From the NCBI GenBank assembly GCA_965213625.1, contig CBDBZU010000004.1, positions 2,752,001 through 2,816,000 on the forward strand: a stretch of 64,000 bases of DNA, in the 5' to 3' direction. Shown in pieces: positions 15,943-41,728 of the stretch (positions are counted from its first letter, which is position 1; each line of letters opens with the position of its first letter). This DNA comes from a bacterium. Its GTDB lineage: Bacteria > UBA8248. The notes below the pieces were generated by a model that was not told where the DNA came from, made no database searches, and saw only the letters and a list, made by a program, of their open reading frames with translations. The translations under genes and the position numbers were made by a program.

Positions 15943-16605
15943 CTACTCACCACCCTCCTGAAACGCGATGCGCTCGCCGGGGGGTTCCACGACGAGGTGT
16001 AAGGCCTCGGCCACGCGGCCCGTCAGGTTCCAGAGACCGCATATGAGGGTCAGCGAGACGAGTTGTTCGGTGGAGAAATGTTTCTGCATGGCCTCGAACG
16101 CCGCGTCGTTATTCTTGGCCGTCAGGTTCGTGACTTCCTCCGCCCAGTCGATGGCGGCTTTTTCCTTCTCGCTAAAGAGGTCGCTGTCCCGCCAGCCGTC
16201 GCCCTCCAGTAAATTGATTTTCTCCTGTTCGATGCCATGAGCCCGACCGAGCTCGACGTTGTGCCCGAGTCAGTTGTTGCACTCGGTCAGGATGGCCGTC
16301 TTGATGATGACGAGCTGGGCCATGTGGATGTATTCGGGGTCGGAGTCGCGGTGCTGGACGCGGAGTTTTCCGTCCATAATCTGCCAGCCCTCGACGAAGC
16401 CGGGCGCCCAGCCGAGCAGGCGCAAAAAGCGCGACACTTTGCCCCAGCGCTTCACGCCGCGCTCATATAGGGGCGCGAGTTCTTCGGCCAGGTGTTCGGG
16501 GATGTTGTCCGGATCGATCATAGGCACGCGGGGGAGGGGGCAGGCCATCATCTCCTCGGTGACGCCCATATCCTGAGAGAGGCCGGTGGCTTCGTTTATC
16601 GGCAT
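15943..16605 (-). CDS. AhpD/carboxymuconolactone decarboxylase-like selenoprotein (CxxU, U112)
   Basis: In-frame TGA at 16272-16270 in TECNN*LGH; the frame continues 108 codons (FSEKEKAAIDWAEEVT...HFSTEQLVSLTL...NLTGRVAEAL) to TAG; SECIS-like hairpin follows the TGA. Confidence 0.85.
16234..16257 (-). promoter_or_regulatory. Putative bacterial SECIS hairpin of the AhpD-like gene
   Basis: GUC-GAGCUC-[GGUC]-GGGCUC-AU-GGC; the loop G is nt 22 after UGA. Confidence 0.7.
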
Positions 16606-16679
16606 AGCGGAATCCCTTTCTGGTGATGCGTGAACGGATGAGAGTGAGGGCGCATTCTCGCGTACTGAGAGGGTTAGGA

Positions 16680-17087
16680 TCAATTCTCTTTATTGTACTC
16701 CATGCCTTCCAAGCGCCGCCGAACTTCTTCAAGCAATGCTTCCACGCGCTTTACAGCAACCTCTCGATCAAGCGGCATTGCGGAAATGTCGCTTGCACCG
16801 TAGCGAAATTGAACGGCGTAGGAGGTATATTCCACAAATTCTTCGAGACGTGCGGCCTCTATGTCTTCTTTTTTCATCATATTCATCAGTCGCGCTAAGT
16901 CATGCGTGGCGGGATATGTTCGTCCAAGAATAGCTAGTAATGCCTTGAGTAATTTCTCCACCGCCTGTTGCACATGAAAGCCGAATATTTCGTCGGCGAA
17001 AATCGTTGTGTCTTCCATGCCGCGGAGGGCGGAATAATCCCGCTCCGCCGCCTCAAGAAGCACGCGAGCCTGCTTAATGTCGCTCAT
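16680..17087 (-). CDS. HEPN domain protein
   Basis: FHVQQAVEKLLKA, THDLARL, QFRY; ATG at 17087 overlaps the 3' end of the MNT gene. Confidence 0.88.
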   Translation of the reverse strand: MSDIKQARVLLEAAERDYSALRGMEDTTIFADEIFGFHVQQAVEKLLKALLAILGRTYPATHDLARLMNMMKKEDIEAARLEEFVEYTSYAVQFRYGASDISAMPLDREVAVKRVEALLEEVRRRLEGMEYNKEN

Positions 17088-17409
17088 AGAGCACTTCGCC
17101 TTCGCGCAGGGCGCGCGCCAGGACATGGTTGAGGGAATCACGCCAGTATTCCACCTCGTCGCGGCTGAAGAGCAGAATGTCCTTGGAAACGTCAAAATCC
17201 GCCAGCGCGCGCCATAGGCGAGTGGTTTCGGCGCGCCTGTCCCGGTTTTTCCCGAAAGGCGCCGCTTCCACAACCACGAAATCCACGTCGGAGTCCGCCG
17301 CCGCATCGCCACGCGCGCGAGAGCCGAAGAGGATCACCTGCTCGGGATCGACTTCGTCCACGATGGTATTCACCATCTTTTTGAGTAGCGCGTCGTCGAC
17401 TTGCGTCAT
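17074..17409 (-). CDS. Minimal nucleotidyltransferase (MNT), partner of HEPN
   Basis: VILFGSRARGDAAADSDVDFVVV; AGGAG RBS. Confidence 0.92.
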   Translation of the reverse strand: MTQVDDALLKKMVNTIVDEVDPEQVILFGSRARGDAAADSDVDFVVVEAAPFGKNRDRRAETTRLWRALADFDVSKDILLFSRDEVEYWRDSLNHVLARALREGEVLYERH

Positions 17410-17539
17410 GGTTCGGGACTCCTTTCATGCCAACTGGCCGCAAACTTACATTGCGTCATTATAAGCGCGGGTGGAAGCCGCGTCATCATGTCATGGTTGC
17501 AGTTGGAATAACCCGGATACCAGAATAAAGTTGTCGACC

Positions 17540-17658
17540 GTAGGGGCGAACCCAAGTGTCCGCCCACATTGGGGTAACCATGAAGTCTGAGGACGAATAC
17601 AGGTGGGTGTGGCCTTTACGTTTGTGGTCTCTGGGCGAACACACAGGTTCGCCCCTAC
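17540..17658. repeat. Inverted pair of GTAG-type REP palindromes (REPIN-like)
   Basis: GTAGGGGCGAACCCAAGTGTCCGCCC (17540-17565) and GGGCGAACACACAGGTTCGCCCCTAC (17633-17658). Confidence 0.85.
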
Positions 17659-17683
17659 AAGTGCGTTATCCTTTCACGCCTGC

Positions 17684-18025
17684 TCAACCGTCCTTCGCTT
17701 CGCTCACGCTCCTTGCGTAGGGGAGGTAGTGGCAGGAGAGGCAGCCGTCGGCGTTCGAGGACTGAATGCGCTTGATATGCTTTGACATCATCCCCCGTTT
17801 GCGTAGGTAGTCTTTCCAGGTCAGCTCCGGCCTGCCGACAACATCGAGAGAGTTGAAGCTCGCCGTGAGGGTCTTGTGACGGAGCGTCGCTAAATCTTGA
17901 TTCGTCAACCTATTGGCCTGCGCCTCGCCGATAGCGGTCATGGCGCCATCAGCGGCCGGGAAGAGGGATCCGGATGCAAGCCATGTAAGGATGAGGAAGC
18001 TTCCGAGGAGAAAGAGTTTTTTCAT
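17684..18025 (-). CDS. Small secreted protein with C-terminal CxxCH
   Basis: GGAGG RBS; signal peptide MKKLFLLGSFLILTWLASG; GCLSCHY near the C-terminus. Confidence 0.6.
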   Translation of the reverse strand: MKKLFLLGSFLILTWLASGSLFPAADGAMTAIGEAQANRLTNQDLATLRHKTLTASFNSLDVVGRPELTWKDYLRKRGMMSKHIKRIQSSNADGCLSCHYLPYARSVSEAKDG

Positions 18026-18312
18026 GGCGTGTCCTCCGCATCAGCGGCCGTCTACGCCATGTCTCGTCAGCGGCCAGGAGTAAACGACCGCCTATGTGAT
18101 TCAATATGGTTCCCGCCGCTAAGTCGCGCAAGTGGGATTGACGAATCTCTCTCATGAGGACAGGTCGCGGCCTCGAACAGGCACGGGGGCCTTTCCGCTA
18201 CGCCCTTCTCGCAAATTTTCTTGGTCGCTCTTGGGGCGGTTCGTGAACTGTAGACGGACGTGCAAGTGTAGGCTTACACCCTGTAGGATGCGTACGAGGA
18301 GGCGACGATAGA

Positions 18313-18786
18313 ATGCCCGAATTCATCATCGCGCAGAGCGAAGAAAATTACCGGGAGGCTGCGGTGTTGCTGCGCGAGTATGAGGCCGATCTCGGAATCG
18401 ACCTGTGCTTTCAGGGGTTTCCCGAAGAACTCGAAAGTCTCGAACGCATGTATGGCCCGCCGGGCGGGCGATTTCTCTTGCTCCGCGTGGAGGAAGGGAC
18501 CGCCGGTTGCGTCGCCCTCGTGGATTCGGGCGGCAATACCTGCGAGATGAAGCGTCTCTACGTACGCCCCGCTTTCAGGGGACGGGGGCTGGGGAGAAGG
18601 TGTGCGGAGCAAATCGTCCTCGCGGCGCGGGAGATAGGTTACGCCTCGGTGCGTCTCCATACACTACCAGCCATGCGCGAGGCCATTGCCTTGTACCGCT
18701 CCATGGGATTCAGGGAAATCACCCCTTACGACGAAACTCCCGTGGAGGGTGTGGTGTTCATGGAGTTGGGATTGGGACCGAAATGA
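18313..18786 (+). CDS. GNAT family N-acetyltransferase
   Basis: CEMKRLYVRPAFRGRGLGR, AIALYRSMGF. Confidence 0.92.
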   Translation: MPEFIIAQSEENYREAAVLLREYEADLGIDLCFQGFPEELESLERMYGPPGGRFLLLRVEEGTAGCVALVDSGGNTCEMKRLYVRPAFRGRGLGRRCAEQIVLAAREIGYASVRLHTLPAMREAIALYRSMGFREITPYDETPVEGVVFMELGLGPK

Positions 18787-18804
18787 CAGGGTTATTCAGA
18801 GGTT

Positions 18805-18888
18805 GTAGGTCGGACATATATGTCCGACATATATGCGACTCGTGGGGTAGCTGCCGAAAAAGCAGGGAGGCATATATGCCTCCCCTAC
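18805..18888. repeat. Inverted pair of GTAG-type REP palindromes
   Basis: GTAG-GTCGGA-CATATATG-TCCGAC (18805-18828) and GGGAGG-CATATATG-CCTCCC-CTAC (18865-18888). Confidence 0.8.
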
Positions 18889-18981
18889 AATAGGCGTATT
18901 TCTCCTCTATCCGGTCAGGATCAATACAGTTATTACGGCGCATTCCGGATTCCAGAAATTTTGTCTAAGCCGGAATACCCG

Positions 18982-19392
18982 TTACGCCCCCAACGCTTTC
19001 TTGGCCCTGCGCTGGTCCTTGGGATTCACCCATAGGATGGCGCCGTAGCGCTTCCTGCCCGCGGCGATGGCCGTGATGGCGGTGATGTTGATGTCTGCTT
19101 CGGCGAGTTTGGTGAAAACCGGCACGAGCGCCCCGGTGCGGTCCGTGCCCTCGACGAGAAAGGCCTTTTTCCGGGGGCTGAGCTTGAGCTTCGCCTTTCG
19201 CGCGAAGGAGGTGAATGCCCGCGCGTCCTCGGGAACGAAATCGACCTGGACCCGCCTGCGCGAGGGGAAGGCGTGCATCGCCAGCAGGCTGACGCCCGCG
19301 TCCTTGAAAAGCTCGGCGAGGGCGGCGCCCTCTCCCGGCTTATTGGAAGCGGTGATGTAATAGTAAGTGACTTCCCGAACTGTCTCGGCCAT
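18982..19392 (-). CDS. ACT-domain-like protein
   Basis: NKPGEGAAL...AGVSL and DRTGALV...LAEADINI, a tandem ACT-like pattern. Confidence 0.7.
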   Translation of the reverse strand: MAETVREVTYYYITASNKPGEGAALAELFKDAGVSLLAMHAFPSRRRVQVDFVPEDARAFTSFARKAKLKLSPRKKAFLVEGTDRTGALVPVFTKLAEADINITAITAIAAGRKRYGAILWVNPKDQRRAKKALGA

Positions 19393-19630
19393 GGCTTGTC
19401 TCCTGGATTGAAGCGGCATTTCCGGGGCGGGAATATTTCCTAGTTGCGGCCCACGCCCGAAAGGCGCGGGTCAATGAAAATAATCATACAACATGAAGCG
19501 GGGTGAGGTAAACGGAGTGAATCCCGGCTGATGAGAGAGGGATGGGTGGGCCCAGAAAGGTGACAGTATCTGCTCTCTATTTTTGTGAAAGCGAGAACAC
19601 CCGACCATCATTCAAAGCGATTTTCATTTA

Positions 19631-19783
19631 CTCAGCTCACGCCTCCGAATGTTCGCGGGTTCTCTCGTCCACCGTCCGCCGGCGCATGGAAATTTGGTCG
19701 AAGCGAATCTCATGTGCTCAGTCCGCGCCTCCGAATGTTCACGAATTTTTTCGTCCACCGACCCGTCGGCGCATGCGCATTTG
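19631..19783. repeat. Imperfect direct repeat, 86-nt period
   Basis: CTCAG..CGCCTCCGAATGTTC..TCGTCCACCG..CGGCGCATG..ATTTG at 19631-19696 and 19717-19783. Confidence 0.8.
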
Positions 19784-19984
19784 CCCGCAATTGCCGCTGT
19801 CGGTTTTCGTCGGGATGGGTGAGAATCCCGCGCGCGAACGTGAGAGTTCTCCAGGATGAGCGTAGGGGAGAAAATGGAAAGAGCGGTTCAGATTCGGATC
19901 GGAACTGCAGCTACTTTTCAGCCAGGAGGTGCTTCCTCTCCACGGATGGGTGAGCCCAAATCGAGCCCGGGACGGGTCGTCAGG

Positions 19985-20045
19985 GAATTCCTGAAAAATA
20001 CGATAAATATAGATAAATTCACGGGGTTTTCCGGCAAATAAACGA
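19985..20045 (+). repeat. 61-nt AT-rich non-coding motif, copy A
   Basis: 50/61 ungapped identity to the reverse complement of 38282-38342; identical core TAGATAAATTCACGGGGTTTT. Confidence 0.8.
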
Positions 20046-20102
20046 AAATATAAACTGGTTGAATAAACCGTTGTAAGATACAGAAATAAAAAGGATTGTC
20101 GA

Positions 20103-21365: not shown

Positions 21366-21377
21366 GAATCTTTGCTC

Positions 21378-22382: not shown

Positions 22383-22393
22383 TTACCTTTCCC

Positions 22394-23660: not shown

Positions 23661-23680
23661 TCACACTCAGAATTGAGTTT

Positions 23681-24178
23681 ATGGTGAAAATTGATGTTGA
23701 TAATCAAATCTGGACCATTACCCAAAACGTAGTTTCTGAACTTGGGCTTGAATTGGTTGATATTGAACTGACCGGTAACCGTAGCCGGCAGATAATACGT
23801 GTATATATTGAGAAACCAGGAGGTATTCTTCTCTCTGATTGTGCAGTTGTCAGCCGAAAGCTTGGGGAACATCTCGATGAGGAAGACGTCATTGAAAATT
23901 CTTATCGTCTTGAAGTATCAAGCCCTGGCATTGAAAGGCCACTACGAAAAATCCAGGATTATGAACGTTATGTCGGTCATCGGGTGCGGATACGACTTAA
24001 AGGAAGGCAGAAGGGGAAGAGAAAAATTGTAGGTCAGTTGGTTGAGGTTGAGGAAAATATAGTCCATTTACTTTTCAAGAGTGGGGAGAAGGTATCATTT
24101 CCCCTGGAAGATGTTGCAAAAGCGAATTTGGATGTGGATTGGGGTAAGGAATTTCAAAGTTTCAGGAGCTCAAGATAG
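23681..24178 (+). CDS. rimP: Ribosome maturation factor RimP
   Basis: LELVDIE, RVYIEKPGGI, YRLEVSSPGIERPL; position upstream of nusA. Confidence 0.95.
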   Translation: MVKIDVDNQIWTITQNVVSELGLELVDIELTGNRSRQIIRVYIEKPGGILLSDCAVVSRKLGEHLDEEDVIENSYRLEVSSPGIERPLRKIQDYERYVGHRVRIRLKGRQKGKRKIVGQLVEVEENIVHLLFKSGEKVSFPLEDVAKANLDVDWGKEFQSFRSSR

Positions 24179-24211
24179 AGTCAACTCAATCCATCTTAGA
24201 GGAGTAGTTTT

Positions 24212-25564
24212 GTGAGTCAAGAATTGATTGCTGTCCTGACACAATTGGAACGTGAGCGGGGAGTCTCAAAAGATGTGCTACTCGACACACTAAAAGTCGC
24301 GATGGCGTCAGCTGCGAAGAAGCAATACGGTTTGGGCAAAAATGTGGATGTATCTTTCGATGAGCAAACCGGAGAAATTGACGTCAAAGCGGCGAAAGAA
24401 GTCGTCAGGATTATTCAAAACCCCCAGAGTGAGATTCATTTAGATGAAGCACGCAAGGAAAATCCGGAAATTCAAGTAGGGGATTTTCTTTCACAAGGTG
24501 TCGAAACCGAGGGTTTGGGCAGAATAGCCGCACAAATTGCAAAACAAGTGATATTGCAGCGAGTAAGAGAGGCAGAACGGGCGAATATTTTCCAGGAATT
24601 CAAAGAACGTGAAGGCGATTTGATCACCGGGTCTGTCTCCCAAGTTGAGCGCGGGAATATCTATGTAGATATTGGGCGAACAGAGGCGATCCTCCCTCGT
24701 CGGGAACAAATATTCAGAGAGGTTTATAAGCGTGGAGATCGCATCCGCGCCTATATAATGGAAGTACGCGAAATAACGAAAGGTCCTCAAATTGTTCTCA
24801 GTAGGACACACCCTGGATTATTGATTCGTCTGTTTGAAATGGAAGTGCCAGAAATCTATGACGGCATCGTGGCTATAAAAGGTTGTGTCCGAGAGCCAAG
24901 CGGAAGATCCAAAGTATCTGTTGTAAGTCATGAGCGAGATATAGATCCCGTTGGTGCATGCGTAGGGACACGGGGAAGCCGCGTGCAATCGATCGTTCAA
25001 GAACTCAGAGGGGAGAAGATCGATATAATTTCCTGGAGTGACGACATACGCACTTATGCGGCAAATGCACTCAGTCCTGCGAAAATACAGCACATTACTT
25101 TATTTGAAGATGAAGGTCGTATGGAGGTGTTGGTACCTGACGATCAGCTCTCTCTGGCAATTGGGAAAGGCGGTCAAAATGTTCGCTTAGCGGCAAAACT
25201 CTTGGGCTGGAAAATTGATCTGAAAGGTGAGGGCGAGTATCGGCGCATTATCGCCGAACAGGCATTTTCGAGCGATGAGCGTGAAGAGAACGGTGTTGGT
25301 AGTGAAGATAAGCAAGACGAGAGCAACCAGACAACAGAAACTGATGTAGACTCTTCCAGTGAATTGATAGAACTAGAACTGGTCGGTGAGAAAATGGCGC
25401 GGCTCCTAGCCGACAACGGTTATACTACAATTACCGCGATTGGTGCGGCATCGACGGATGAATTATGTGAGGTTCCAGGGATTGGGCCGAAGAGGGCCAC
25501 GTTGCTGATTGAAACTGCTCGAACTCATGAAAAATCCGCTGGCTCGGAGTCCAATGAGGACTGA
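24212..25564 (+). CDS. nusA: Transcription termination factor NusA
   Basis: GRIAAQIAKQVI, LSRTHP, DPVGACVG, LSLAIGKGGQNVRLAAKL. Confidence 0.97.
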   Translation: MSQELIAVLTQLERERGVSKDVLLDTLKVAMASAAKKQYGLGKNVDVSFDEQTGEIDVKAAKEVVRIIQNPQSEIHLDEARKENPEIQVGDFLSQGVETEGLGRIAAQIAKQVILQRVREAERANIFQEFKEREGDLITGSVSQVERGNIYVDIGRTEAILPRREQIFREVYKRGDRIRAYIMEVREITKGPQIVLSRTHPGLLIRLFEMEVPEIYDGIVAIKGCVREPSGRSKVSVVSHERDIDPVGACVGTRGSRVQSIVQELRGEKIDIISWSDDIRTYAANALSPAKIQHITLFEDEGRMEVLVPDDQLSLAIGKGGQNVRLAAKLLGWKIDLKGEGEYRRIIAEQAFSSDEREENGVGSEDKQDESNQTTETDVDSSSELIELELVGEKMARLLADNGYTTITAIGAASTDELCEVPGIGPKRATLLIETARTHEKSAGSESNED

Positions 25565-25579
25565 TGAAGGGATGAATGT

Positions 25580-26143
25580 TTGCCAGATAGATCATGTATA
25601 GCTTGTCGGAACAAAGGAAATGCAAACATTTTTTTTAGAATGGTTATCGCCCCAGTTGGAGGTATCATTTGTGAACTTGGAAGAAAATTGCCGGGAAGAG
25701 GGGCGCATTGTTGTATTGACATGAATTGCATTTCAAAGCTTGTCTCGTCGGATCGCTTGGAAATTGCACTGAAAAGCAGGAATTTCAGGATCGATTCAGA
25801 CGAATTGGTTCAAAATGTGACAATGCTTCTTAGGCGAAATATCGAGGGGATGTTGATTGCTTCCAAAAGAAAAGGCGTACTCACTATTGGGAGAGACGCG
25901 GTTTTCAAAAAGATTAAGTTCTCGAAAATAGGAAAACCGTTTGTTTCCAAAGATATATCAAGAAATAGTTTGATGAACTTGAAACGCATGTCGGAAGAAC
26001 TTTATATTCTGCCTTTTACGATGAATGAACTTGGCGAATTTTTCAGTCGAAAACCGTTTGGCGTGTTATTTATCGATGAACCACTGCTTGTGGATAGTAT
26101 TTGCTTACGTTTGGTGCAGGAAAGGGCAATCTGCAGCAATTGA
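25580..26143 (+). CDS. YlxR (DUF448) fused to an L7Ae/YlxQ-like domain
   Basis: PDRSCIACR...GRGAHCC...C N-terminus; ASKRKGVLTIGRDAV...SKDIS...ELGEFF C-terminus; lies between nusA and infB. Confidence 0.75.
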   Translation: MPDRSCIACRNKGNANIFFRMVIAPVGGIICELGRKLPGRGAHCCIDMNCISKLVSSDRLEIALKSRNFRIDSDELVQNVTMLLRRNIEGMLIASKRKGVLTIGRDAVFKKIKFSKIGKPFVSKDISRNSLMNLKRMSEELYILPFTMNELGEFFSRKPFGVLFIDEPLLVDSICLRLVQERAICSN

Positions 26144-26222
26144 AGCAAGACAAGTATCGGGATTCACTAAAAAATAACTGTTGATTTGATAATGGATTCA
26201 AATAATCTGCAGTGGAGGTTTT

Positions 26223-28481
26223 ATGGCGAGCGTACGCGTATACCAACTGGCTAAAAATCTTGGATATGACAGCCGGACTTTTGTTGAAGAATTAGCCAGG
26301 GAAGGAATCGTAGTTAAAAGCCATATGAGCACTGTGGATGATGAAACTGCGGAACTGGTAATGGCTCTTTTTTCTCAAGATTCAGCACAAGAGAAGGAAG
26401 TGGCTCAAGAAAGCAAGGCTGAAAAAAAGATTTCACCGAAAACGAAAGTTGATAAACCCCAAGAACCAAGTGAGCCTGCCTCGGTAGATGTGGAATCCAA
26501 AGAAGAATCAACTGTCTCTCCTACCACTCAAGAAGCTGTTGTTCAAACAAAAGTCAAACCAGAAAAAGCCGCTGTTGACGAAAAGCTAATCGCGGAAACT
26601 ATCGAGACTAGTGCAGAAGAACAAACAGTTTTAGACCCCAAAACTCCGTTGCCTGAAGACAAAGTCCTTGCATCAACGCCAAGCCCGAAAGTTGTTCGGG
26701 ATGACAGCAGAGAAAAACCTACTCGTCGGCATGGAGGGCGCGTACGTATTGCAGAGACGATTACGGTGAAAGAACTTGCTGAAAAAATTAACGTAAAGGC
26801 GACGGAAGTTATCAAGGAGTTGATGAAAAAGGGCCAGATGACGACTATCAATCAAATGATAGATCATAATACGGCTACAAATATATCTGAAACCTTCGGC
26901 TATGAAGTTGAAATATCCAAAGACAACATTGAAGATCTGCTGATTCAGGAAGAGGATAGGGTAGAAGATCTTCAGCCCAGATCTCCTGTCATAACGATTA
27001 TGGGTCATGTTGATCATGGGAAAACGAGACTTCTCGATGCAATCCGCAAAGCCAATGTGATGGAAGGCGAAGCAGGTGGAATCACGCAACATATTGGCGC
27101 CTATCGAGTCACTACGGATAAAGGGACAGCTGTCTTCTTGGATACCCCTGGACACGAAGCCTTTACAGCAATGAGGGCGCGGGGGGCGCAAGTGACAGAT
27201 TTAGCCATCATCGTAGTTGCTGCGAATGAAGGCGTCATGCCCCAGACTCGAGAGGCGATTGATCATGCAAAAGCCGCTGGAGTCCCGATTATGGTGGCGA
27301 TGAATAAAATGGACTTGGCAGACGCTAACCCCGACAGAGTAAAACAGCAACTTTCGACATTGGACTTAATCCCAGAAGATTGGGGTGGAGACACGGTTTA
27401 TTCAGAAATTTCCGCAAAAGAGAATATCGGAATTGATGATCTTTTAGACCTCGCCATTCTGCAGGCCGAACTCATGGAATTGAAGGCCAACCCGAGCCGT
27501 CTCGCTAATGGTGTTGTCGTGGAAGCAAAACTGGACAGGGGACGTGGTCCGGTAGCTACTGTTTTGGTTCAACGAGGCACATTGAATGTGAGTGATAACT
27601 TCGTGGCCGGTAAATGGAATGGCAAAGTTCGCGCATTATTGGATGACCAAGGGCGGAAGTTGAAGTTAGCAGGGCCCTCTACTCCAGTAGAAATTTTGGG
27701 ATTCGCCGGTGTACCTGAGGCTGGTGATACATTTACGGTTTTAGCAGATGAGAAAATGACGAGAGAGATAAGCGCAAGACGTCAACAACGTGAACGTATG
27801 GCGGCGCTTATGGCTTCTGCTCGTGTTTCTTTGGAAAGTTTCATGGAAAGCGTAGAAGAAGGCCAGGTGAAAGAACTGAGTTTAATCTTAAAAGCGGATG
27901 TGCAGGGTAGCATAGAAGCTTTGAAAGAATCCTTGGGGAAACTGGGGAATGAGGAAGTAGGTGTTAAGGTCCTACATAGCGCGGTGGGTGGGATTACAGA
28001 AACCGACGTGATGCTTGCAGCTGCCTCGGCAGCCGTGATCGTAGGTTTTAACGTTCGTCCGACGCCAGGAGCCAGAGAAGTCGCGAAGCATGAAAAAGTA
28101 GACATTCGATTATATTCGGTTATCTATGACGCTATCGATGAAATAAAATCGGCTCTTGAGGGAATACTCGAACCCGTGAAGAGAGAAGTAGTTCGTGGAC
28201 ACGCGGAAATCCGGGAGTTATTCCATGTTCCCAATGTGGGTAACATAGCGGGTTGTTATGTCACCGATGGAAACATCAACAGAAATTCGAACGTGCGCCT
28301 CATCCGGGATAATGTGGTCATTTATACGGGCACTATTTCGTCTTTGAGGCGATTCAAGGATGATGTGAACGAGGTTCAATCTGGTTATGAGTGTGGAATC
28401 GGAATTGAGAATTATAATGACATCAAGCAAGGCGATATCATAGAACCGTATGTTACGGAAGAAGTTTCGCGGACGCTTTAG
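26223..28481 (+). CDS. infB: Translation initiation factor IF-2
   Basis: [37 protein letters not shown]. Confidence 0.98.
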
Positions 28482-28517
28482 CTTGATTTGTATCACCTAT
28501 TTTGAACTCACCACTCC

Positions 28518-28802
28518 ATGCCTGTCGTAGGTCTATTGAATATCGATATTCAGATTCCTGAATGCCGTTCGCTCAAGGCGAAGCGTAAGATAGTTCAGTC
28601 AATCACAACACGCCTGCGTCAAAAGTTTAATGTGTCTGTCGCTGAAGTCGATTTCCAAGATAAGTGGCAAAGATGTCGTATCGGCGTATGTGTCGTAAGC
28701 AATGACAGTCGGTTTGTAGATAGCCAGCTTAGAAAAGTGCTGAATTACCTTGAGGGAATGGGTTTGATGATTGTCCTGGATTTTGATATCGAGATTTTAT
28801 GA
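28518..28802 (+). CDS. DUF503 (YlxP) family protein
   Basis: SLKAKRKIV...KFNVSVAEVDFQDKWQ; position after infB. Confidence 0.92.
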   Translation: MPVVGLLNIDIQIPECRSLKAKRKIVQSITTRLRQKFNVSVAEVDFQDKWQRCRIGVCVVSNDSRFVDSQLRKVLNYLEGMGLMIVLDFDIEIL

Positions 28803-28826
28803 AATTTATGGAGAGAGATTTATAGC

Positions 28827-29180
28827 ATGAGCAATTCTCGTATGCTGCGCGTAGCGGAACTCATTCAATCCGAACTCGCGAATATGGTTATGAGGGATGT
28901 AAAAGATCCGCGTGTGCAACATGTTGTAATTACTCGAGTGGAAGTGTCCCCTGATTTGAGAGTTGCGAAGGTCTACTTTAGCCGATACGGTGAAAATCAA
29001 GGGAATGTGGAAGAGATGGAAGAAGGTTTGAAGGGACTCGAACGCGCCAGTGGATTCTTACAGATGAAACTTGCCGAGCGTTTGAAATTGAAAAGTACAC
29101 CCAAGCTGAAATTCTTCGTCGACCACAGTTTGGCATATAGCGCCGAAATTGAACGGGTATTATCGGATTTAAAGAGGTAA
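28827..29180 (+). CDS. rbfA: Ribosome-binding factor A
   Basis: RVAELIQ, KDPRV, VSPDLRVAKVY, TPKLKF. Confidence 0.95.
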   Translation: MSNSRMLRVAELIQSELANMVMRDVKDPRVQHVVITRVEVSPDLRVAKVYFSRYGENQGNVEEMEEGLKGLERASGFLQMKLAERLKLKSTPKLKFFVDHSLAYSAEIERVLSDLKR

Positions 29181-29201
29181 GTTCAAAAAAAGGGTTAGAT
29201 T

Positions 29202-30128
29202 TTGGAACTCTCGGGTGTTTTGAATCTGAAGAAAATGCATGGTCCTACTTCACACGATATGGTTGAAGAAGTGAGAAAACTTCTTCCCAGAAAAACAAAA
29301 GTGGGGCATGCAGGTACACTTGACCCTATGGCCGAAGGGGTATTGCCAATTTGCATTGGCCCCTCGACGAAATTATTCTCATATTTTTTAGAGTGCAAGA
29401 AAACGTATCGGGCTGTCATGTTGTTTGGTCGAGTCACAGATACCCAGGATATTACGGGAAAATTGTTGGCCGAATCTGAGCCAGGGGAGATTACAATAGC
29501 TCGAGCCCAGGAACTACTGAATTCGATGCATGGCAAGACAGAGCAGATGCCTCCAATGTATTCCGCTTTGAAATCCAATGGAAAGCGATTACACGAATTA
29601 GCGCGTTCTGGCAAGGAAATTGAAAGAGACAAGCGGCCCATAGAAGTGTTCAAGATCAAGACAATTGGCATAGTAGGTCCCCAACTTACCTTTGATGTCA
29701 CCTGCTCTCGGGGAACATACATTCGCTCGATATGTCATGATGTCGGGGCCAGCCAAGGGGCCGGCGGATGTTTGCAAGCGCTCACGCGAACCGCTTTGGG
29801 CCCGTTTGAAATCGCGGATTCTTTTTCTCTTGAAGATGTTCAACGCTATTCGAGAGAAAGTCGCCTTAATGATATTCTTATCAGTCCTGCACAGGCTCTC
29901 GCGCATTTACCTGCCATCCATGTACACCCGAGAGCGGAGGTGCGGGTGCTGAATGGCGCTATGATCAGGTTTGAAGATGTTCGGGAAGCTGTTGATTTGC
30001 CAGTAGATACTCGTGTCCGTATGCTGAATGAACCGGGAGAGTTATTGGCGGTCGGGAAGATGGTCCATGAAAATGCACGAAAACGAAACCAGGGGTTTGT
30101 GGCGCCTGAAAAAGTGTTTGTCACCTAG
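29202..30128 (+). CDS. truB: tRNA pseudouridine(55) synthase
   Basis: KVGHAGTLDPMAEGVL, PPMYSALK, CSRGTYIRS. Confidence 0.96.
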   Translation: MELSGVLNLKKMHGPTSHDMVEEVRKLLPRKTKVGHAGTLDPMAEGVLPICIGPSTKLFSYFLECKKTYRAVMLFGRVTDTQDITGKLLAESEPGEITIARAQELLNSMHGKTEQMPPMYSALKSNGKRLHELARSGKEIERDKRPIEVFKIKTIGIVGPQLTFDVTCSRGTYIRSICHDVGASQGAGGCLQALTRTALGPFEIADSFSLEDVQRYSRESRLNDILISPAQALAHLPAIHVHPRAEVRVLNGAMIRFEDVREAVDLPVDTRVRMLNEPGELLAVGKMVHENARKRNQGFVAPEKVFVT

Positions 30129-30152
30129 ATTCAAGAGAAAATACGTTCTGTA

Positions 30153-30181
30153 TTTACATTGATGGAAAAGTTGTATAGAAT
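30153..30181 (+). promoter_or_regulatory. Putative sigma70 promoter of rpsO-pnp
   Basis: TTTACA-17 nt-TAGAAT. Confidence 0.6.
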
Positions 30182-30262
30182 CCGCCCGTTTTCAAGAAGT
30201 TACACCAATGTGGCTCGGCAGTATCGAGAGCGACGATATAAGCAGTGGAGGAAGTGACAGAA

Positions 30263-30532
30263 ATGCCCCTAGCAAAGGAGCGAAAATCGGAAGTTATTGA
30301 AAAATTTCGCACACATGACACCGATACCGGTTCACCAGAAGTGCAGGTAGCTATCCTAACCGAGCGTATTACCTACCTCACAGACCATTTCAAGACCCAC
30401 AAGAAAGATCATCATTCCCGAAGAGGGTTATTGAAACTCGTGGGTCAGCGGCGTCGCCTCCTTGATTATTTGAAAGAGAAAGACATCAACCGCTACCGCA
30501 CGATCATTCAAGATCTTGGCCTGCGTCGCTAG
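30263..30532 (+). CDS. rpsO: 30S ribosomal protein S15
   Basis: [33 protein letters not shown]. Confidence 0.98.
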
Positions 30533-30564
30533 ATGCGGGTCTTGCCTCAGAGGGAAGCTATCTA

Positions 30565-32700
30565 ATGTCACCGTATCGTAAAGACATATCTATCAATGGT
30601 TATACTCTTGCTTTTGAAACAGGTGAGATAGCCAAGCAAGCCGGTGGCGCCGTAATGATGCATTATGGTGAAACCAGTGTGCTGTGTACGGCTTGCGCCT
30701 CGCACTCAACTCGTGAAGGGATAGATTTTTTCCCGCTTACGGTTGACTACCGAGAATTTTTCTACGCAGCAGGAATTATTCCCGGCAACTTTTTTCGGCG
30801 CGAAGCAAGGCCTGGCGAGAGGGAAACATTAACTTGTCGATTAATCGATAGGCCAATCCGTCCTCTTTTCCCTAAGGAATTTCGTTGTGAGACGATGATT
30901 CAAGTCATGGTCATGTCTTACGATAAGTTGAATGATTCCGACATTTTGGCAATCAATGGCACATCCGCCGCCCTTCACATTTCAGATATCCCTTTCGCCG
31001 GTCCTATCGGTGCAGTTCGCGTTGGACGAATTGATGGCGAAATTATTGTCAATCCGACAGTCGAACAACAAATTGACAGCGATCTGAATTGTGTAATGGC
31101 CGGCACATCGGACGCGATAGTCATGGTGGAAGCCGGCAGCTTTGAAGTTTCCGAAGACGTATATATGGAAGTGTTTGAGCAAGGGCATGCGGTAATAAAA
31201 GAATTATGTGCATTGCAGGATGCACTCAGGGCCGAATGCGGGAAACAAAAACGCGTCATCGAAACTGAGGAAGAAAATACGGAACTTTTGGAGAAGGTTC
31301 GTGAAATTGTTGCACCAAAATTAAATGCAGCTGCCGAAATTCACGATAAGGCAGGACAATATGACGCAATAGATGAGGCGAAAGCTGCTGTAGTCGACTC
31401 TCTTTGTACAGACGAGGATGGGGCTCCTGATAAAGGCGATGTCTCTGAATGTTTTGGGAAAATCGAAAAAGAAGTATTCCGTGGTTTGATTTTGGATGAG
31501 GGGAAACGTTCAGACGGTCGGGGGCTTCGTGACGTCAGGCCGATTACCATCAGAATGTCGCCCCTTGCCAGGCCCCATGGCAGCTCATTGTTTACACGGG
31601 GCGAGACCCAGGCGTTGGTGACTGTAACGTTGGGTACCGCCTCCGAAGCGCAATTGATAGACACCCTGGATGGCAAAGCCGACAGAACTTTTCTCCTGCA
31701 CTATAATTTTCCCGGATTTAGCGTTGGGGAAGCGAAGCCGAACCGCGGCCCTGGTCGTCGCGAGATAGGACACGGCGCACTTGCTTCTCGCGCCGTGCAG
31801 GCGATTTTGCCTGAGCAGGAAGATTTCCCCTATACAATCCGGGTAGTTTCAGACATCACGGAGAGCAACGGCAGTTCATCCATGGCGAGTATCTGTGGCG
31901 CCAGTCTGGCCCTGATGAGTGCGGGCGTACCGATAACATCACCAGTAGCCGGCATTGCCATGGGTTTGATCAGTGAAGAATCCACAGGAAGAACGGCAAT
32001 ACTCACGGATATCCTTGGTCTGGAAGATCATTTAGGGGATATGGATTTCAAGGTTGGTGGTACGCGCCATGGCATTACTGCCCTTCAAATGGATATCAAA
32101 ATCAAAGGCCTGCAATTGAGTCTCGTGAAAGATGCATTGTCACAGGCCAACGATGCGAGAATGCATGTACTTGATCAGATGGATAAAGTGATTTCTCAGC
32201 CAAGCGAAGAGATTTCCCCTTACGCGCCGAGGATTATGACGATTCAGGTCTCGAAAGATCGCGTGAGAGATGTGATTGGACCAGGCGGAAAAGTCATTCG
32301 TGGAATTGTCGAGGAAACGGGGGCGGATGTCGATATTGAAGATGACGGAACCATCTTCATTTCCTCCACAGATGAGGCGGCTGCTCTCAGGGCGATTGAA
32401 ATCATTCGTGAACTGACTCAGGAAGCCGAGAAAGGCACGATTTACCATGGGACAGTCAGAAAAATCATGGATTTTGGAGCATTCGTCGAAATTTTCCCGG
32501 GAACGGATGGCCTTTGTCATATCAGCATGATTGCCAAGAAGAGAATTGGTTCAGTGAGTGATGTCTTGAAAGAAGGCCAGAAGGTTTTGGTGAAATGCAT
32601 TGAAGTGGAAGGGAATGGGAGAATCCGTCTCTCCATGAAAGATGTGACAGAAGAAGAGTTGCCCGAAGAATGGAAGCAATTCTATGCACCCGTGACTTGA
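30565..32700 (+). CDS. pnp: Polyribonucleotide nucleotidyltransferase
   Basis: [49 protein letters not shown]; KH and S1 domains. Confidence 0.98.
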
Positions 32701-35055: not shown

Positions 35056-35214
35056 TTTTGGTCCCCCTCAATGGTGAGAATTACCACATCTCCAACCACG
35101 CATTTGCTGTAAGTGGTGATTCGGGCGAATATGTTATCACCATCGCAGGAGTATTTCTATCCTGGATTTTCGGGTGATTTGTGAAGAAAAGTTTTATAAA
35201 TCAGAGGGCATCGA

Positions 35215-36891: not shown

Positions 36892-37055
36892 GTTTTGGGC
36901 TACCTTTGTATCTATTAGATATATCAGAAGTTAAACTCTTTCCTCACGGCATCGAGTAATTGAATTTGACGGCAAGAATCGGATAGAAGACTCCCGGCGT
37001 GGCGATTACATTGTGGTGAATATGTAATGGCTCATACCTTATGGGAGGCGAGGAA

Positions 37056-38099
37056 ATGAACGCGAACGCTCAGTGGGAAGCGATTCTCAATCGGGACGTG
37101 AATGCTGATGGCCGCTTCGTATACGCCGTTCGCACCACCGGAATCTATTGCCGTCCTTCATGCGCAAGCCGGAAGCCAAATAAAAACAATGTGTTAATCT
37201 TCAAATTCCCGGAAATGGCCGAAGGGCGCGGGTTCAGGCCATGTCTGCGGTGCGTACCGCAGGATGCGGGCTACGATCCGCGACTCGGGAAGGTGAGAGA
37301 TGCCGTTCGCTACATCGAGGAACACGCGGATGAAAACCCGACGCTTGAGGTGTTGGGGCGGGTTGTGGGTGCCAGTCCACATCATCTGCAACGCACCTTC
37401 AAGCGGGCCCTGGGCGTGAGCCCCCGGCAGTATCTCGAATCCCTTAAAGCGCAGAATTACAAGAATTTACTGAAAAACGGACGCGACATCGCAGGCGCAG
37501 GCTATGAGGCAGGGTACGGCTCTAGCAGGGGGGTGTATGAGGGCGCCTCTCGTTATATGGGGATGACGCCGGCCACCTATAAAACGGGTGGAGCAGGCCT
37601 TTCGATACGCTATGGAACCACCAAATGCCGCCTGGGGACTTTGCTGGTGGCGGCTACGGACAGGGGAGTCTGCCGTGTGAGTATCGGGGATACTACCGGC
37701 GAACTCGTATCCGATCTTGAGAACGAATATCCCCATGCGAATCTGAACCGTAGCGATGATGAATTAAAGGAATACTTGATATCTGTCGCGAGCCTCGCCA
37801 AAGGTGATGAACTCTCTGGATCCTTGCCGCTCGATGTGCGAGCCAGCGCGTTTCAGTGCCGCGTGTGGGAGCGGCTTAAATCCATTCCCCTTGGAAATAC
37901 AATGACATACAAGGAGATAGCCGAAGACTTAGGGAATCCCAAAGGCGCGCGGGCGGTAGGGAGCGCATGCGCGCAGAATCCGGTGGCGCTGCTCGTTCCC
38001 TGCCACCGCGTGGTCCGGGGAGACGGCGGTCTCGCGGGCTACCGCTGGGGTGTGGAGCGCAAGAGAAGGCTCCTGGATATGGAGAAGAAACAGAGGTAA
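37056..38099 (+). CDS. ada: Bifunctional transcriptional activator / O6-methylguanine-DNA methyltransferase Ada
   Basis: TTGIYCRPSC, FRPCLRC, AraC HTH, PCHRV. Confidence 0.95.
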   Translation: MNANAQWEAILNRDVNADGRFVYAVRTTGIYCRPSCASRKPNKNNVLIFKFPEMAEGRGFRPCLRCVPQDAGYDPRLGKVRDAVRYIEEHADENPTLEVLGRVVGASPHHLQRTFKRALGVSPRQYLESLKAQNYKNLLKNGRDIAGAGYEAGYGSSRGVYEGASRYMGMTPATYKTGGAGLSIRYGTTKCRLGTLLVAATDRGVCRVSIGDTTGELVSDLENEYPHANLNRSDDELKEYLISVASLAKGDELSGSLPLDVRASAFQCRVWERLKSIPLGNTMTYKEIAEDLGNPKGARAVGSACAQNPVALLVPCHRVVRGDGGLAGYRWGVERKRRLLDMEKKQR

Positions 38100-38281
38100 T
38101 ATCAATTATTTAGGTGGTATATCCTGATTTTCGTTTTACCCGGAATCCCGCCGGTTTTGCGGACGCAATTCCCCGCATTTGCCTTTGCGCAAAGGCCTCC
38201 CGGGCCGTAGTATATTCACGCTGTTTCTGCGGGTGGAGGATTATCGCCCGCGCACTACCCCGCAACTTCCCGCATTTCCCC

Positions 38282-38342
38282 TCGGTAATTTATCGAAAAA
38301 CCCCGTGAATTTATCTAATTTTATCGATATTTTCAGAAATTC
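38282..38342 (-). repeat. 61-nt AT-rich non-coding motif, copy B (inverted relative to A)
   Basis: Reverse complement matches 19985-20045 at 50/61. Confidence 0.8.
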
Positions 38343-38497
38343 AGGTGGCAATTTCGAGCCTGCTGCTCACTCGAAATTTGAACCGGACGCACCACGAATA
38401 CAGGTCTCGTTCGGGAGATTTTTCAGGAACTGGATGCAGGCTGCTTGTAGCGCGACCTGTCCTTAGAAATGAGAACCACGGAATCCATCACGAGGGC

Positions 38498-38616
38498 GGG
38501 CGGACACGAGGGACCGCCCCTGCGAAACCATCGCGCACCCTGCCTCCGCCCGCTGAATGGGCAATCCCCCGTGGTTGTCCCTATTCAGGAGGACAGGCGC
38601 AGGGGCCTGTCCCTGC
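38498..38616. repeat. Cluster of three degenerate GTAG/GCAG-type REP palindromes
   Basis: GGGCGGACACGAGGGACCGCCCCTGC (38498-38523), GGGCAATCCCCCGTGGTTGTCCC (38559-38581), GGACAGGCGCAGGGGCCTGTCCCTGC (38591-38616). Confidence 0.7.
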
Positions 38617-38675
38617 ATGCCTGATACGGATTGCGCCCGATGATGGAAATTCCGCCGTGTGATGCAAGCGCCGCC

Positions 38676-40028
38676 TCACCCCCCTGGACGCGTCACGGTG
38701 TTGCCATACCCCGCTCTTCCGGTCACCTCGCCGTCTTCCATCACGACTTCGCCGCGCACGAGCGTCATCACGGGCGCGCCCTTCACGGTCCAGCCGTCGA
38801 ACGGCGTCCACTTGCATTTCGAGACGATGTCGGCATCGCGCAGCGTTTCTTCTTGTTCCATGTCCACGACGATGAAGTCCGCATCCGCGCCCACCTGGAT
38901 GCACCCCTTTCTGGGATAGATGTTGAAGACACGCGCGGGCTGCTCGCAGCAGACGCGCACCATCTGGTTGAGCGTCAGCACACCCTCGCTCACGGCGTTC
39001 AGCATCAGGCGCACCGTCGTCTCCACACCCGGTATCCCGAAAGGCGCATCGTGAATGTTCTCGAGCCCGTCGACTTTCCGCTGGCGGGGGAAGGGGCAGT
39101 GGTCGGTGCCGATGGTGTCCACCATGCCGCGCCCAAGGGCCACGCGCATTCCGTCGCGCGTCTCGGGCGAGCGGATGACCGGCGTGAACTTGACGAACGG
39201 CCCCAGCTCTTCCAGATGCGAATGGTCCAGATAGAAATACTGGGGACAGCTTTCGGCAAAAATCCTGGCTCCGCGCCCGCGCGCTGCCTGAATGGCCTCT
39301 AGCAGTACGGGCTGGCTCACGTGCGCCACCAGCACGGTGCAGCCTGTGAGTTCGGCCAGGGCCACGGCGTCCAGCGTCGCCACGTATTCACTCTCGGGGT
39401 TTCGCCAGTCGCTGATGCACATGTAGTCCGTCCGGTTATCGGCGTCGATTTTCTCTTTTGATTTATTGAGGATGGAATCGCTCTCGCAGTGGAGCATCAC
39501 CGTGGCGCCGAAGGATTTCGCTTCGCGCATGATGTTCAAAAGGACGCCTTCGGACAGGTCGGGCACGCCGTGCAACTCGCACATGAACCCTTTGAAGCCC
39601 AGTGCGCCGCCCTCCCACATGGGGCGCAAGTGCGCGAGGTTGTCGACGTCGAGGCCGCCCAGTTGCCCGAAATCCACCACCGAGCGCGAGTCGATGTAAG
39701 CCGTCTTGTCTTCGAGAATCTCCCGCGTGTAGACGAGCGGCTCGCTCCTGTGGTGGTCGATCACCGTGGTGATGCCGCCCCTTGCCGCCGCCTCGGTGCC
39801 CGTTGTCCAGTCTTCCCGGTCCGTGAAGCCCGGGTCCATCATGTGCACGTGCTCATCCACCATGCCCGGCAGGAGATGGCGGCCCGCTGCGTCGATTTCG
39901 CGCGCGGCGCTGGATTCTGCTTTTTGCGTGATGGCGGAAATCCGCCCCCCCTCCACGTAGACGCAGCCCTCGTAGGTGTCGACCGGCGTCACGATTTTTG
40001 CGTTCTTGATCAAAAGGTCGGCGCTCAT
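38676..40028 (-). CDS. Cyclic amidohydrolase (allantoinase/dihydroorotase family)
   Basis: PGMVDEHVH, AAARGGITT, GFK, HCE, GTDHCP, GADAD. Confidence 0.9.
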   Translation of the reverse strand: MSADLLIKNAKIVTPVDTYEGCVYVEGGRISAITQKAESSAAREIDAAGRHLLPGMVDEHVHMMDPGFTDREDWTTGTEAAARGGITTVIDHHRSEPLVYTREILEDKTAYIDSRSVVDFGQLGGLDVDNLAHLRPMWEGGALGFKGFMCELHGVPDLSEGVLLNIMREAKSFGATVMLHCESDSILNKSKEKIDADNRTDYMCISDWRNPESEYVATLDAVALAELTGCTVLVAHVSQPVLLEAIQAARGRGARIFAESCPQYFYLDHSHLEELGPFVKFTPVIRSPETRDGMRVALGRGMVDTIGTDHCPFPRQRKVDGLENIHDAPFGIPGVETTVRLMLNAVSEGVLTLNQMVRVCCEQPARVFNIYPRKGCIQVGADADFIVVDMEQEETLRDADIVSKCKWTPFDGWTVKGAPVMTLVRGEVVMEDGEVTGRAGYGNTVTRPGG

Positions 40029-40109
40029 GCAATTGCCCTCTCAAGATTTGTCGTTTTTCTGTGAAACTGCGCGTGCTTCGAGAATGGCGGCATTATGACG
40101 CATAAGGGT

Positions 40110-40146
40110 GTAGGGGTGAAACCCGACTGAAGAAGGAGGGTTGCTC
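40110..40146 (+). repeat. GTAG-led palindrome carrying the GACTGARRAAGGA loop
   Basis: GTAG-GGGTGA-AACCC-[GACTGAAGAAGGA]-GGGTT-GCTC. Confidence 0.6.
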
Positions 40147-40191
40147 GACATAATAAGACGCAATCGCTCCTTGATCAGTCGCGATCGACCC

Positions 40192-41088
40192 TTAATTCAC
40201 ACCTTTCGCTTTCGGCGCCAGCCCCAGCGCCCGTCTTTTCCGGATGACGCCCGAGAGGCGGTACCATGCCGCGCGGCCGGGGTCGACCCGTGAGCCACGC
40301 TCGATGAGGCGCGAGGCATAGTCCAGCTCCTTGTTCAGGTAGACGAGCAGGGAGGCGAGGTTCAGGAGCACGCCCGTGTCCTTGGGCGATAATTCCTCGG
40401 CCGCCTTGAGTATCTTTTCCGCCTCTTCGTAGCGGTACTGGGAGACCAGGTACTTGGCGTACCTGTTCGAGACGACCGGGTTCTCGGGGTCGAGTCCGCG
40501 GGCTTTGCGATATGCGGCGAGCGTTTCTTCGAGATCACCCGCATCGTCCATCATCTTCGCCAGGGCGAGCCAGGCGTCCACGTTTCCCGGGTTGATTTTC
40601 AGATCATCGCGAATGAGCTTGAGAGCAGCCTCGTCATTTTTTTTCTCAAGGAGTCCTAAGGCGCGCTCGTAATGCGCGCTCGTCGTTTTCTGTAAAATCG
40701 AAAATCCCTCCTCCGACTCGATGATTCTCGACGTCGCCCCGAGTTTCAAATCCTGAACCTCGGCCCGGACGCCGACGCTGAATTCAGAAGGCTCCGCATT
40801 TCGGATGGCTATGGCTTTATCCTTGAACTCGAGGGCCACCTGGCGGAAGGGGATTCCGAGAATGGCGGTCTTGTCATACGCCTCTTTCGCCAGGTCGTAA
40901 GTGGGAAGCGTCAGGACGCGGAAAAAGTGCGGGTCTTCCGCTTTTTTCTCAGGCTTTGGTTTTGGCTGGAGTACGGTCTCCTTCTTCTCTTTGGGAAGAA
41001 AGAGAGCGCGGAAGTTCGCACAGCCCGTCAGCAGCAGAAATGCCGCCGGCGCGACGAAGATTATCCCCAGCCGCCTGTCTCCTCGCAT
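40192..41088 (-). CDS. TPR-repeat lipoprotein with a degenerate parvulin-like segment
   Basis: Lipobox LTGC; LKLGATSRIIESEEGFSIL; TPR-like repeats (INPGNVDAW, LDPENPV, LSPKDT). Confidence 0.75.
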   Translation of the reverse strand: MRGDRRLGIIFVAPAAFLLLTGCANFRALFLPKEKKETVLQPKPKPEKKAEDPHFFRVLTLPTYDLAKEAYDKTAILGIPFRQVALEFKDKAIAIRNAEPSEFSVGVRAEVQDLKLGATSRIIESEEGFSILQKTTSAHYERALGLLEKKNDEAALKLIRDDLKINPGNVDAWLALAKMMDDAGDLEETLAAYRKARGLDPENPVVSNRYAKYLVSQYRYEEAEKILKAAEELSPKDTGVLLNLASLLVYLNKELDYASRLIERGSRVDPGRAAWYRLSGVIRKRRALGLAPKAKGVN

Positions 41089-41095
41089 AACTGTG

Positions 41096-41728
41096 TCAGG
41101 CGTCCGCGGTTTCCGCCACGGCGCGCTCGAAAGTTTTCATGAAAACCTCCATCGGCTGAGCGCCCGTGATTCTGTAGTTGTTCGCAAAATCGACCGTGGG
41201 CGTGGACTGTATCCCTGAGTTCAGCGCCTCGACGTGATCCGCAAAAACGCGCTTTTCCATCTCCGGGTCGGCCATGACCTCGCGCATTATCGCGGGCTCC
41301 GCCCCCAGCCGCTCGGCGGCGGCCACAAGCACGTCGGTGTCGTCGATGTTCCGGCACTCGACCAGATGCGTTCGTTCCACGGCTTCAAGGTACTCGCCCT
41401 CGCGCTCGGGGAGTTGGGTGGCGAAGGCCTTGATGGCGATCGCCCCGGGGGTGGAATGGGGATAGGGGAAATCGCGGCGCGCCATGAGTTCGGGGTTGAT
41501 CGCCTCGCCCCCGGGATGGCCCTTCGCCATCGCCCAGTGTCCCATGATGGCTTCTTTGCGGGTCGGGCGATGGTCCGGCTCGGGCGAGAGGAGAAATGCG
41601 CGATATCGGATGGCCAAGCGGCCGTCTGTCAGCTCCGTCAGTTTTCGCAACCGCACGGTTGCGATCAGGCACCAGGCTCAGTGTACGCAGTAGGTGTAAG
41701 TGGCTTCTACGACATGTTCGTTTGGCAA
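41096..41728 (-). CDS. DsbA/FrnE-like thioredoxin-fold selenoprotein (C14-x-x-U17-x-x-C20)
   Basis: TTG at 41728 with GAGGA RBS gives MPNEHVVEATYTYCVH*AWCLIA, in frame with ORF 41096-41656 (YRAFLL, PHS, cis-Pro loop GIQSTPT, ITGAQP); TGA at 41680-41678. Confidence 0.85.
41645..41664 (-). promoter_or_regulatory. Putative bacterial SECIS hairpin of the DsbA-like gene
   Basis: Perfect 8-bp stem UCGCAACC-[GUGC]-GGUUGCGA; the loop G is nt 22 after UGA. Confidence 0.75.

Follow-up and report, generated by a model that had tools for sequence, protein, structure and literature searches.

Two unrelated predicted selenoprotein genes with probable SECIS hairpins at the same distance from the UGA codon in a Nitrospinota-type chromosome

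The window analyzed here is a 64,000-nucleotide (nt) stretch of a bacterial chromosome (contig CBDBZU010000004.1, positions 2,752,001 to 2,816,000; GTDB lineage UBA8248). It contains two unrelated minus-strand genes, each with an in-frame TGA triplet. Gene 1 encodes a CMD/AhpD-like protein and gene 2 a DsbA-like protein (Table 1). In each predicted transcript the UGA is followed, at the same distance, by a hairpin of the type of the bacterial selenocysteine insertion sequence (SECIS). Very probably both hairpins work as bacterial SECIS elements, each in a gene of a selenoprotein family already known, on a Nitrospinota-type chromosome.

RESULTS

The two genes and their UGA codons

Reading through the TGA of gene 1 gave an open reading frame (ORF) with selenocysteine (Sec) at codon 112, in the motif C-N-N-U-L-G-H. 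The U aligned with the invariant Cys of CMD-family homologs, which have CNYC, CNNC, or SAYC at this place. The match to the Pfam CMD family was weak (PF02627; 21.0 bits, cutoff 23), and the cutoffs of TIGR01926 (22.5, curated cutoff 81.8) and of NF053654, the YciW-related (seleno)protein model (44.5, cutoff 310), were not reached. Full-length relatives with 40–50% identity carry PF02627. Among the gene 1 orthologs described below, one (L017) scored 24.4 with this model, and three (L001, L019, and L021) gave no match at E ≤1e-4. Given these sub-cutoff scores, we place the predicted gene 1 protein in a distinct subfamily. Its close database relatives were either 111-residue N-terminal pieces that stop exactly at the TGA ("...CNN") or C-terminal pieces beginning from "VGHNV". 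One relative, protein P0034, reads "RCNNWLGHN", with W at the Sec position; its gene call evidently used a code that reads TGA as Trp.

The gene 2 product has Sec at codon 17, in the motif U-A-W-C, and the sequence GAGGA lies 7 nt upstream of its TTG start. Residues 15–198 matched the Pfam DSBA family (PF01323; 46.7 bits, cutoff 25.6). In an alignment with 10 full-length homologs, U17-A-W-C20 fell on C-A/P-W-C, with U in the place of the first CxxC cysteine. Against NF041057, an NCBIfam (seleno)protein model, the score was below the cutoff (28.6 bits, cutoff 190). All of the database relatives of gene 2 (21/21) start downstream of the TGA. In every database entry seen, each of the two genes was mis-annotated: the TGA either split it or cut off its N-terminal part.

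These alignments support the assignment of both TGAs as in-frame, Cys-aligned Sec codons in unrelated genes. Both genes belong to known selenoprotein families. The families listed for marine metagenomes in PMC13188914 include AhpD-like and CMD-like proteins with CxxU and DsbA-like form 1 (PF01323) with UxxC. Gene 2 has the same domain and the same UxxC as DsbA-like form 1 and differs from it in its sub-cutoff NF041057 score. Gene 1 has the same CxxU followed by xxH as the CMD-like and AhpD-like selenoproteins (PF02627/TIGR01926), although it falls below the TIGR01926 and NF053654 cutoffs and marginally below that of PF02627.

Table 1 Positions of the two predicted selenoprotein genes and their elements in the window
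Feature	Position	Strand	Description
Gene 1, predicted CMD/AhpD-like selenoprotein gene	15943..16605	minus	ATG at 16605, TAG stop at 15945..15943; 220 codons
Gene 1 predicted Sec-UGA	16272..16270	minus	In-frame; TGA present in 22/22 orthologous loci
Gene 1 probable SECIS apical hairpin, GAGCUC / GGUC / GGGCUC	16254..16239	minus	6-bp stem; loop nt 25–28 at 16248..16245
Gene 1 possible 3-bp extension with bulged C18	16258..16236	minus	C15-G37, G16.U36, U17-A35; in 45-nt and constrained folds, −10.1 kcal/mol
Gene 2, predicted DsbA-like selenoprotein gene	41096..41728	minus	TTG start, TGA stop; 210 codons
Gene 2 predicted Sec-UGA	41680..41678	minus	In-frame, Cys-aligned
Gene 2 probable SECIS apical hairpin, UCGCAACC / GUGC / GGUUGCGA	41664..41645	minus	8 Watson-Crick pairs; loop nt 25–28 at 41656..41653
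Positions near each UGA are numbered with the U of UGA as nt 1. bp, base pairs.

Geometry and folding of the two hairpins

The RNA beginning at 16272 in gene 1 is UGA CUC GGG CAC AAC GUC GAG CUC GGU CGG GCU C, and that beginning at 41680 in gene 2 is UGA GCC UGG UGC CUG AUC GCA ACC GUG CGG UUG CGA. A first-pass annotation of the window had reported that these two unrelated genes share an identical geometry, and its coordinates and arithmetic were right. The gap between UGA and loop is 21 nt in both (16269..16249 in gene 1 and 41677..41657 in gene 2), and both loops consist of 4 nt closed by a C-G pair. The agreement does not extend to the GU dinucleotide, which is found at nt 26–27 in the gene 1 loop and at nt 25–26 in that of gene 2. 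Truly common to the two loops is only G25 followed by G or U.

The gene 2 hairpin was the minimum-energy structure in every fold tried (−12.1 kcal/mol for the bare hairpin, and also −12.9). A shifted-register hairpin in the same RNA (41668..41649, minus; loop ACCG 18 nt after the UGA; eight pairs, four of them G.U) was rejected in favor of the more stable 8-bp Watson-Crick stem.

The pairs of the gene 1 stem are G-C, A-U, G-C, C-G, U.G, and C-G, and the bare hairpin had a free energy of −7.4 kcal/mol. The more favorable energy shown in Table 1 is obtained with an extension that, like the bulged C18, is not conserved in the orthologs; alignment columns 35–36 vary. The minimum-energy folds of 40 and 60 nt contained a different hairpin that includes the UGA itself. 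The GGUC hairpin appeared in the 45-nt fold and when nt 1–12 were held unpaired. An Rfam scan of the window gave no match at gathering thresholds.

Conservation of the gene 1 hairpin

A search of genome contigs with a three-sequence alignment identified 22 orthologous gene 1 loci from Nitrospinota, with 61–97% identity. The TGA was kept in all of them, down to 62% amino-acid identity. The 23 gene 1 sequences differ among themselves at 333 of the 594 nucleotide sites and at 183 of the 198 third codon positions. The 16-nt hairpin contains a single variable site and is the only one of 579 16-nt windows of gene 1 with one variable site or fewer (mean 9.1). In L019 and L021 the G at this site is an A, which turns U.G into U-A; pairing is thereby kept, and the bare hairpin becomes more stable (−8.3 kcal/mol).

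In the 17 distinct rows of the alignment all 102 helix cells were paired. The competing UGA-containing hairpin was broken in the orthologs, with 12 of 170 cells unpaired; for example, pair 6–25 was lost in 8 of the 17 rows. Because the cells of the GGUC hairpin stay paired and the competing helix breaks, we regard the GGUC hairpin as the constrained element and reject the alternative. The comparison of the 22 orthologs therefore supports a strong RNA-level constraint on this hairpin. The backing that it provides for the predicted structure is the invariance of frozen synonymous sites, not covariation.

Specificity of the pattern

The window has 57% G+C and contains 2058 TGA trinucleotides on the two strands. 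The first-pass annotation had proposed scanning for TGA-N20-CGNNCG with a flanking stem as a check on its rule. Used as a bare motif, this pattern was at the level of chance, with 17 matches versus 18.71 expected, and it became specific once a stem was required. With a stem of at least 5 bp, only 2 of the 2058 TGAs matched, and both were the UGAs of genes 1 and 2. With a stem of at least 6 bp, 300 dinucleotide-preserving shuffles averaged 0.11 matches, and 2 of the 300 reached the observed two. Genuine stops did not share the pattern: of the 21 Pfam-supported genes in the window that end in TGA, not one gave a match at its stop.

When the 22 orthologous loci were added to the window (452,698 nt; 13,824 TGAs), the strict pattern gave 26 matches. 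Gene 1 accounts for 23 of them and gene 2 for one; the remaining two, L013 (−) 11216 and L017 (+) 16042, are spurious, as they lack a reading frame and each has just three open codons upstream. A simplified generic SECIS model matched 110 of the 2058 window TGAs and 1 of the 21 true stops, and it missed gene 1 because of its −7.4 kcal/mol. The specificity of the strict pattern is therefore high.

Comparison with known SECIS elements

In the bacterial SECIS model of bSECISearch (Zhang and Gladyshev 2005), as summarized in the Fig. 2 legend of PMC13188914, the loop has 3–9 nt, the upper stem has 4–16 bp, a G lies within the first two loop positions (mostly as G[G|U]), the UGA-loop spacing is 16–37 nt, and the free energy is at most −7.5 kcal/mol. 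Relative to this summary, both hairpins agree in their place within the coding sequence directly 3′ of the UGA, loop size, stem length, G position, spacing, and a Cys-aligned in-frame UGA. The energy of gene 2 (−12.1) is below the limit and that of the bare gene 1 hairpin (−7.4) is not. All elements of the proposed rule thus fall within the general bacterial model as given there.

The fdhF, fdnG, and fdoG SECIS elements of Escherichia coli K-12 (NC_000913.3) were folded in the same way as the window hairpins. In fdhF, the GGUC loop occupies nt 22–25, 18 nt after the UGA; an A-U pair closes it, and the upper stem has 3 bp, with a bulged U beneath. The three E. coli genes hold G23 and U24 in one register, with a UGA-loop spacing of 18 or 19 nt, whereas their loops vary between a 4-nt GGUC closed by A-U and a 3-nt GUC. 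The fdhF element has been described as a 17-nt hairpin 11 nt from the UGA in which SelB contacts U17 and G23 (PMC8659212). On this evidence, a shared register among the selenoprotein genes of one organism was already the established picture for E. coli.

Gene 1 has the same GGUC loop as fdhF; therefore, this loop is not specific to the lineage of the window. The likeness extends to the possible lower part of the gene 1 structure, in which 3 bp from nt 15 and a bulge at nt 18 lie below the upper stem (in fdhF, G15-C31 and a bulged U). The two window hairpins differ from fdhF in that the loop starts at nt 25 rather than nt 22, after 21 instead of 18 nt, which is one codon more, and in that the upper stem has 6 or 8 bp rather than 3 and is closed by C-G rather than A-U. 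Moreover, the bulge in gene 1 is a C instead of a U and is not conserved, and gene 2 has no bulge. The hairpins also depart from the fdhF-type minimal SECIS, as the G is at nt 25 and 13 nt lie between the UGA and the gene 2 stem. New relative to E. coli, then, are three extra nucleotides of spacing, longer stems, and the C-G closing pair.

The fdhA SECIS of Moorella thermoacetica, bound to SelB, has a G+C-rich stem closed by C-G and a GGUC-containing loop, with G and U contacting the winged-helix domain. We take this likeness as a lead only.

Search for further selenoprotein genes

SECIS-independent screens of the window and the 22 loci found no third selenoprotein family. In the composition screen, a filter on codon-position G+C reduced 1998 in-frame TGAs to 201, of which the 169 unique contexts were all scanned against Pfam. 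The only domain spanning a TGA among these coding-like cases was that of the gene 1 ortholog L017. This screen has blind spots: the filter dropped gene 2, Pfam at the E-value limit given above missed the same three gene 1 orthologs (L001, L019, and L021), and weak or N-terminal cases may escape it. A gene-boundary screen yielded 287 candidates; nine were inspected and all were rejected. A relaxed hairpin scan for a third family gave 360 matches, mostly off-frame noise.

Several rejected candidates can be described individually. "WM*IICSGG" lies upstream of the infB start and "WVN*WPI" upstream of rimP, and "VIC*TSC" has no family and an off-frame composition. An in-frame TGA a few codons upstream of the infB start, with a UxxC-like motif, was present in five loci (for example, L006 (−) 1892, L008 (−) 434, and L022 (−) 1062); it falls in the leader and ribosome-binding region, outside any domain. 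The window candidates at 51098 and 5003 showed no sign of genes read through the TGA, and that at 11378 is the end of a shadow ORF. The shadow ORF (11376..12836, minus) has 486 codons and no family match. The real genes there are read from the plus strand; one is flavin-reductase-like and ends at 12311, and the other, at 12330..13400, encodes a zinc-type alcohol dehydrogenase. An OsmC-like gene at 44048..44524 (minus) has a complete domain and no in-frame TGA; Sec forms of this family, with UxxT, are among those listed in PMC13188914.

From the two candidates, the first-pass annotation had suggested a large, mis-annotated selenoproteome. The mis-annotation is real, in that both genes are split or truncated in the databases, and bacterial selenoprotein genes are routinely mis-annotated. 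A large selenoproteome is not new in Nitrospinota-named genomes: Table 2 of BSepDB (PMC13326102) lists three metagenome-assembled genomes (MAGs) with Nitrospinota or Nitrospinae names, in GTDB phylum UBA8248, with 54, 50, and 48 selenoprotein genes. Two such genes in 64 kb are in line with those counts. Our literature search, which extended to articles but not to BSepDB itself or to supplements, found no description of a Nitrospinota-specific SECIS rule.

DISCUSSION

The Cys/Sec alignment, the hairpins, the synonymous-site constraint, and the specificity of the pattern in the window are observed; binding of SelB to these RNAs, read-through of the UGAs, and a required spacing, as opposed to a chance agreement of two genes, are inferred. 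In the proposed mechanism, the stretch of mRNA immediately 3′ of the ribosomal entry channel would refold into the apical hairpin once translation arrives at the UGA. SelB, carrying GTP and Sec-tRNA(Sec), would bind the loop at the G at nt 25 and the G or U that follows, and Sec would be delivered to the A site in competition with RF2. The CMD/AhpD-like product would then have CxxU as its active site, and the DsbA-like product UxxC. By analogy with the single register of the E. coli fdh genes, the equal 21-nt spacing would most likely be a fixed distance demanded by the one SelB-ribosome geometry of the organism.

Several observations weigh against this interpretation. The CMD score of gene 1 is below the Pfam cutoff. 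The bare gene 1 hairpin just misses the −7.5 kcal/mol limit and so fails the simplified generic scan, and its 40- and 60-nt minimum-energy folds are those of the UGA-containing hairpin. Fold z-scores were weak (−0.94 and −0.99 with 60 nt; −0.19 and −1.74 with 40 nt). The alignment contained no two-sided compensatory changes, and five of the six gene 1 pairs never vary. The evidence from orthologs covers gene 1 only, not gene 2, and the GU dinucleotides of the two loops are out of step by one position. Finally, none of selA, selB, selD, or tRNA-Sec was found in the window or the 22 loci, so these stretches do not by themselves show a Sec trait at the level of the genome.

A reading in which the TGAs are true stops, pseudogene lesions, or Trp or Gly codons of an altered code, with the hairpins as by-products of coding, would agree with the automatic annotation, which takes both TGAs as stops, and with the W of P0034. 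We consider it highly improbable. The TGA is present in every one of the 22 gene 1 orthologs, with reading frame and protein conserved on both sides, and it stands exactly on the catalytic Cys; the synonymous sites of the hairpin are frozen; and TGA is a normal stop in this window, where 21 Pfam-supported genes end in it. If both hairpins are functional SECIS elements, the odds are roughly even that they agree by chance, in a lineage that tolerates a range of spacings and loops. The spacing and loop ranges in the summary of the bSECISearch model are wide, loops in that summary most often have the form G[G|U]NN (PMC13188914), C-G closing pairs are to be expected in DNA of this G+C content, and just two cases are compared. 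Against chance agreement, a joint match in spacing, loop length, closing pair, and last loop base would be unlikely if the spacing were free over 22 values, and the register in E. coli is described as functionally constrained (PMC8659212). A true constraint imposed by the SelB of this organism is a plausible cause of the identical spacing, although only two families show it.

The first-pass annotation went further and proposed a strict, lineage-specific rule: in essentially all selenoprotein genes a C(GNNC)G tetraloop would follow the UGA after 21 nt, and this pattern alone would serve for mining. The Cys-aligned Sec codons, the SECIS-type hairpins, and the shared loop start, loop size, and closing pair on which it drew were all confirmed; the strict rule itself rests on two families and fits within the general model, and we think it unlikely. 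Both independent families of the window do fit it exactly, every gene 1 ortholog keeps the pattern even at 62% identity, a fixed register within one organism has a precedent in E. coli, and the strict pattern gave only the two spurious matches among 13,824 TGAs, with 2 matches in the window versus 110 for the generic model. However, the features were picked after the two families had been seen, the orthologs are inherited copies and not independent cases, and the window and the 22 loci supplied no third family. The GU offset also counts against the rule, as do the three E. coli elements, which share a register but not a predicted loop size or closing pair. In BSepDB as a whole, 87.4% of entries have a canonical SECIS and 12.6% are without one (PMC13326102).

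If the strict rule were true, SelB would read a fixed-register tetraloop whose closing pair is C-G, whose nt 25 is G, and whose nt 28 is C, one codon farther from the UGA than in E. coli. Essentially all of the roughly 50 selenoprotein genes of the lineage would obey it, and a search for six bases plus a stem would recover them and return hardly any false positives. The variety of bacterial SECIS elements would in that case come down largely to a mixture of tight rules that differ between lineages. Reviews describe bacterial SECIS elements as lacking strongly conserved features, so that predictors yield many false positives, and tight models made for each lineage could help. From the window come two clean examples and one case in which constraint at the RNA level is strong; the rule is not established by them.

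Genomic surroundings

The rest of the window is ordinary chromosome, with a rimP-nusA-infB-rbfA-truB-rpsO-pnp cluster, a pyruvate or 2-oxoacid dehydrogenase cluster, and tRNA synthetase genes. The first of these, at 23681..32700 (plus), has the conserved order rimP-nusA-ylxR-infB-DUF503-rbfA-truB-rpsO-pnp. Within it, DUF503 and rbfA share one frame with a TGA stop between them, but each has its own complete domain.

Next to gene 1 lies an islet of defence and toxin-antitoxin genes that varies between loci. The window copy of the islet contains genes for a D12 adenine methyltransferase (14552..15484, plus) and a HEPN-domain protein (16680..17312, minus). In orthologous loci it contains a BglII-like endonuclease with a HicB-like antitoxin (L011:10926-11576), a BrnT/BrnA pair (L006:13120-13827), and a nucleotidyltransferase (L005:1149-1562).

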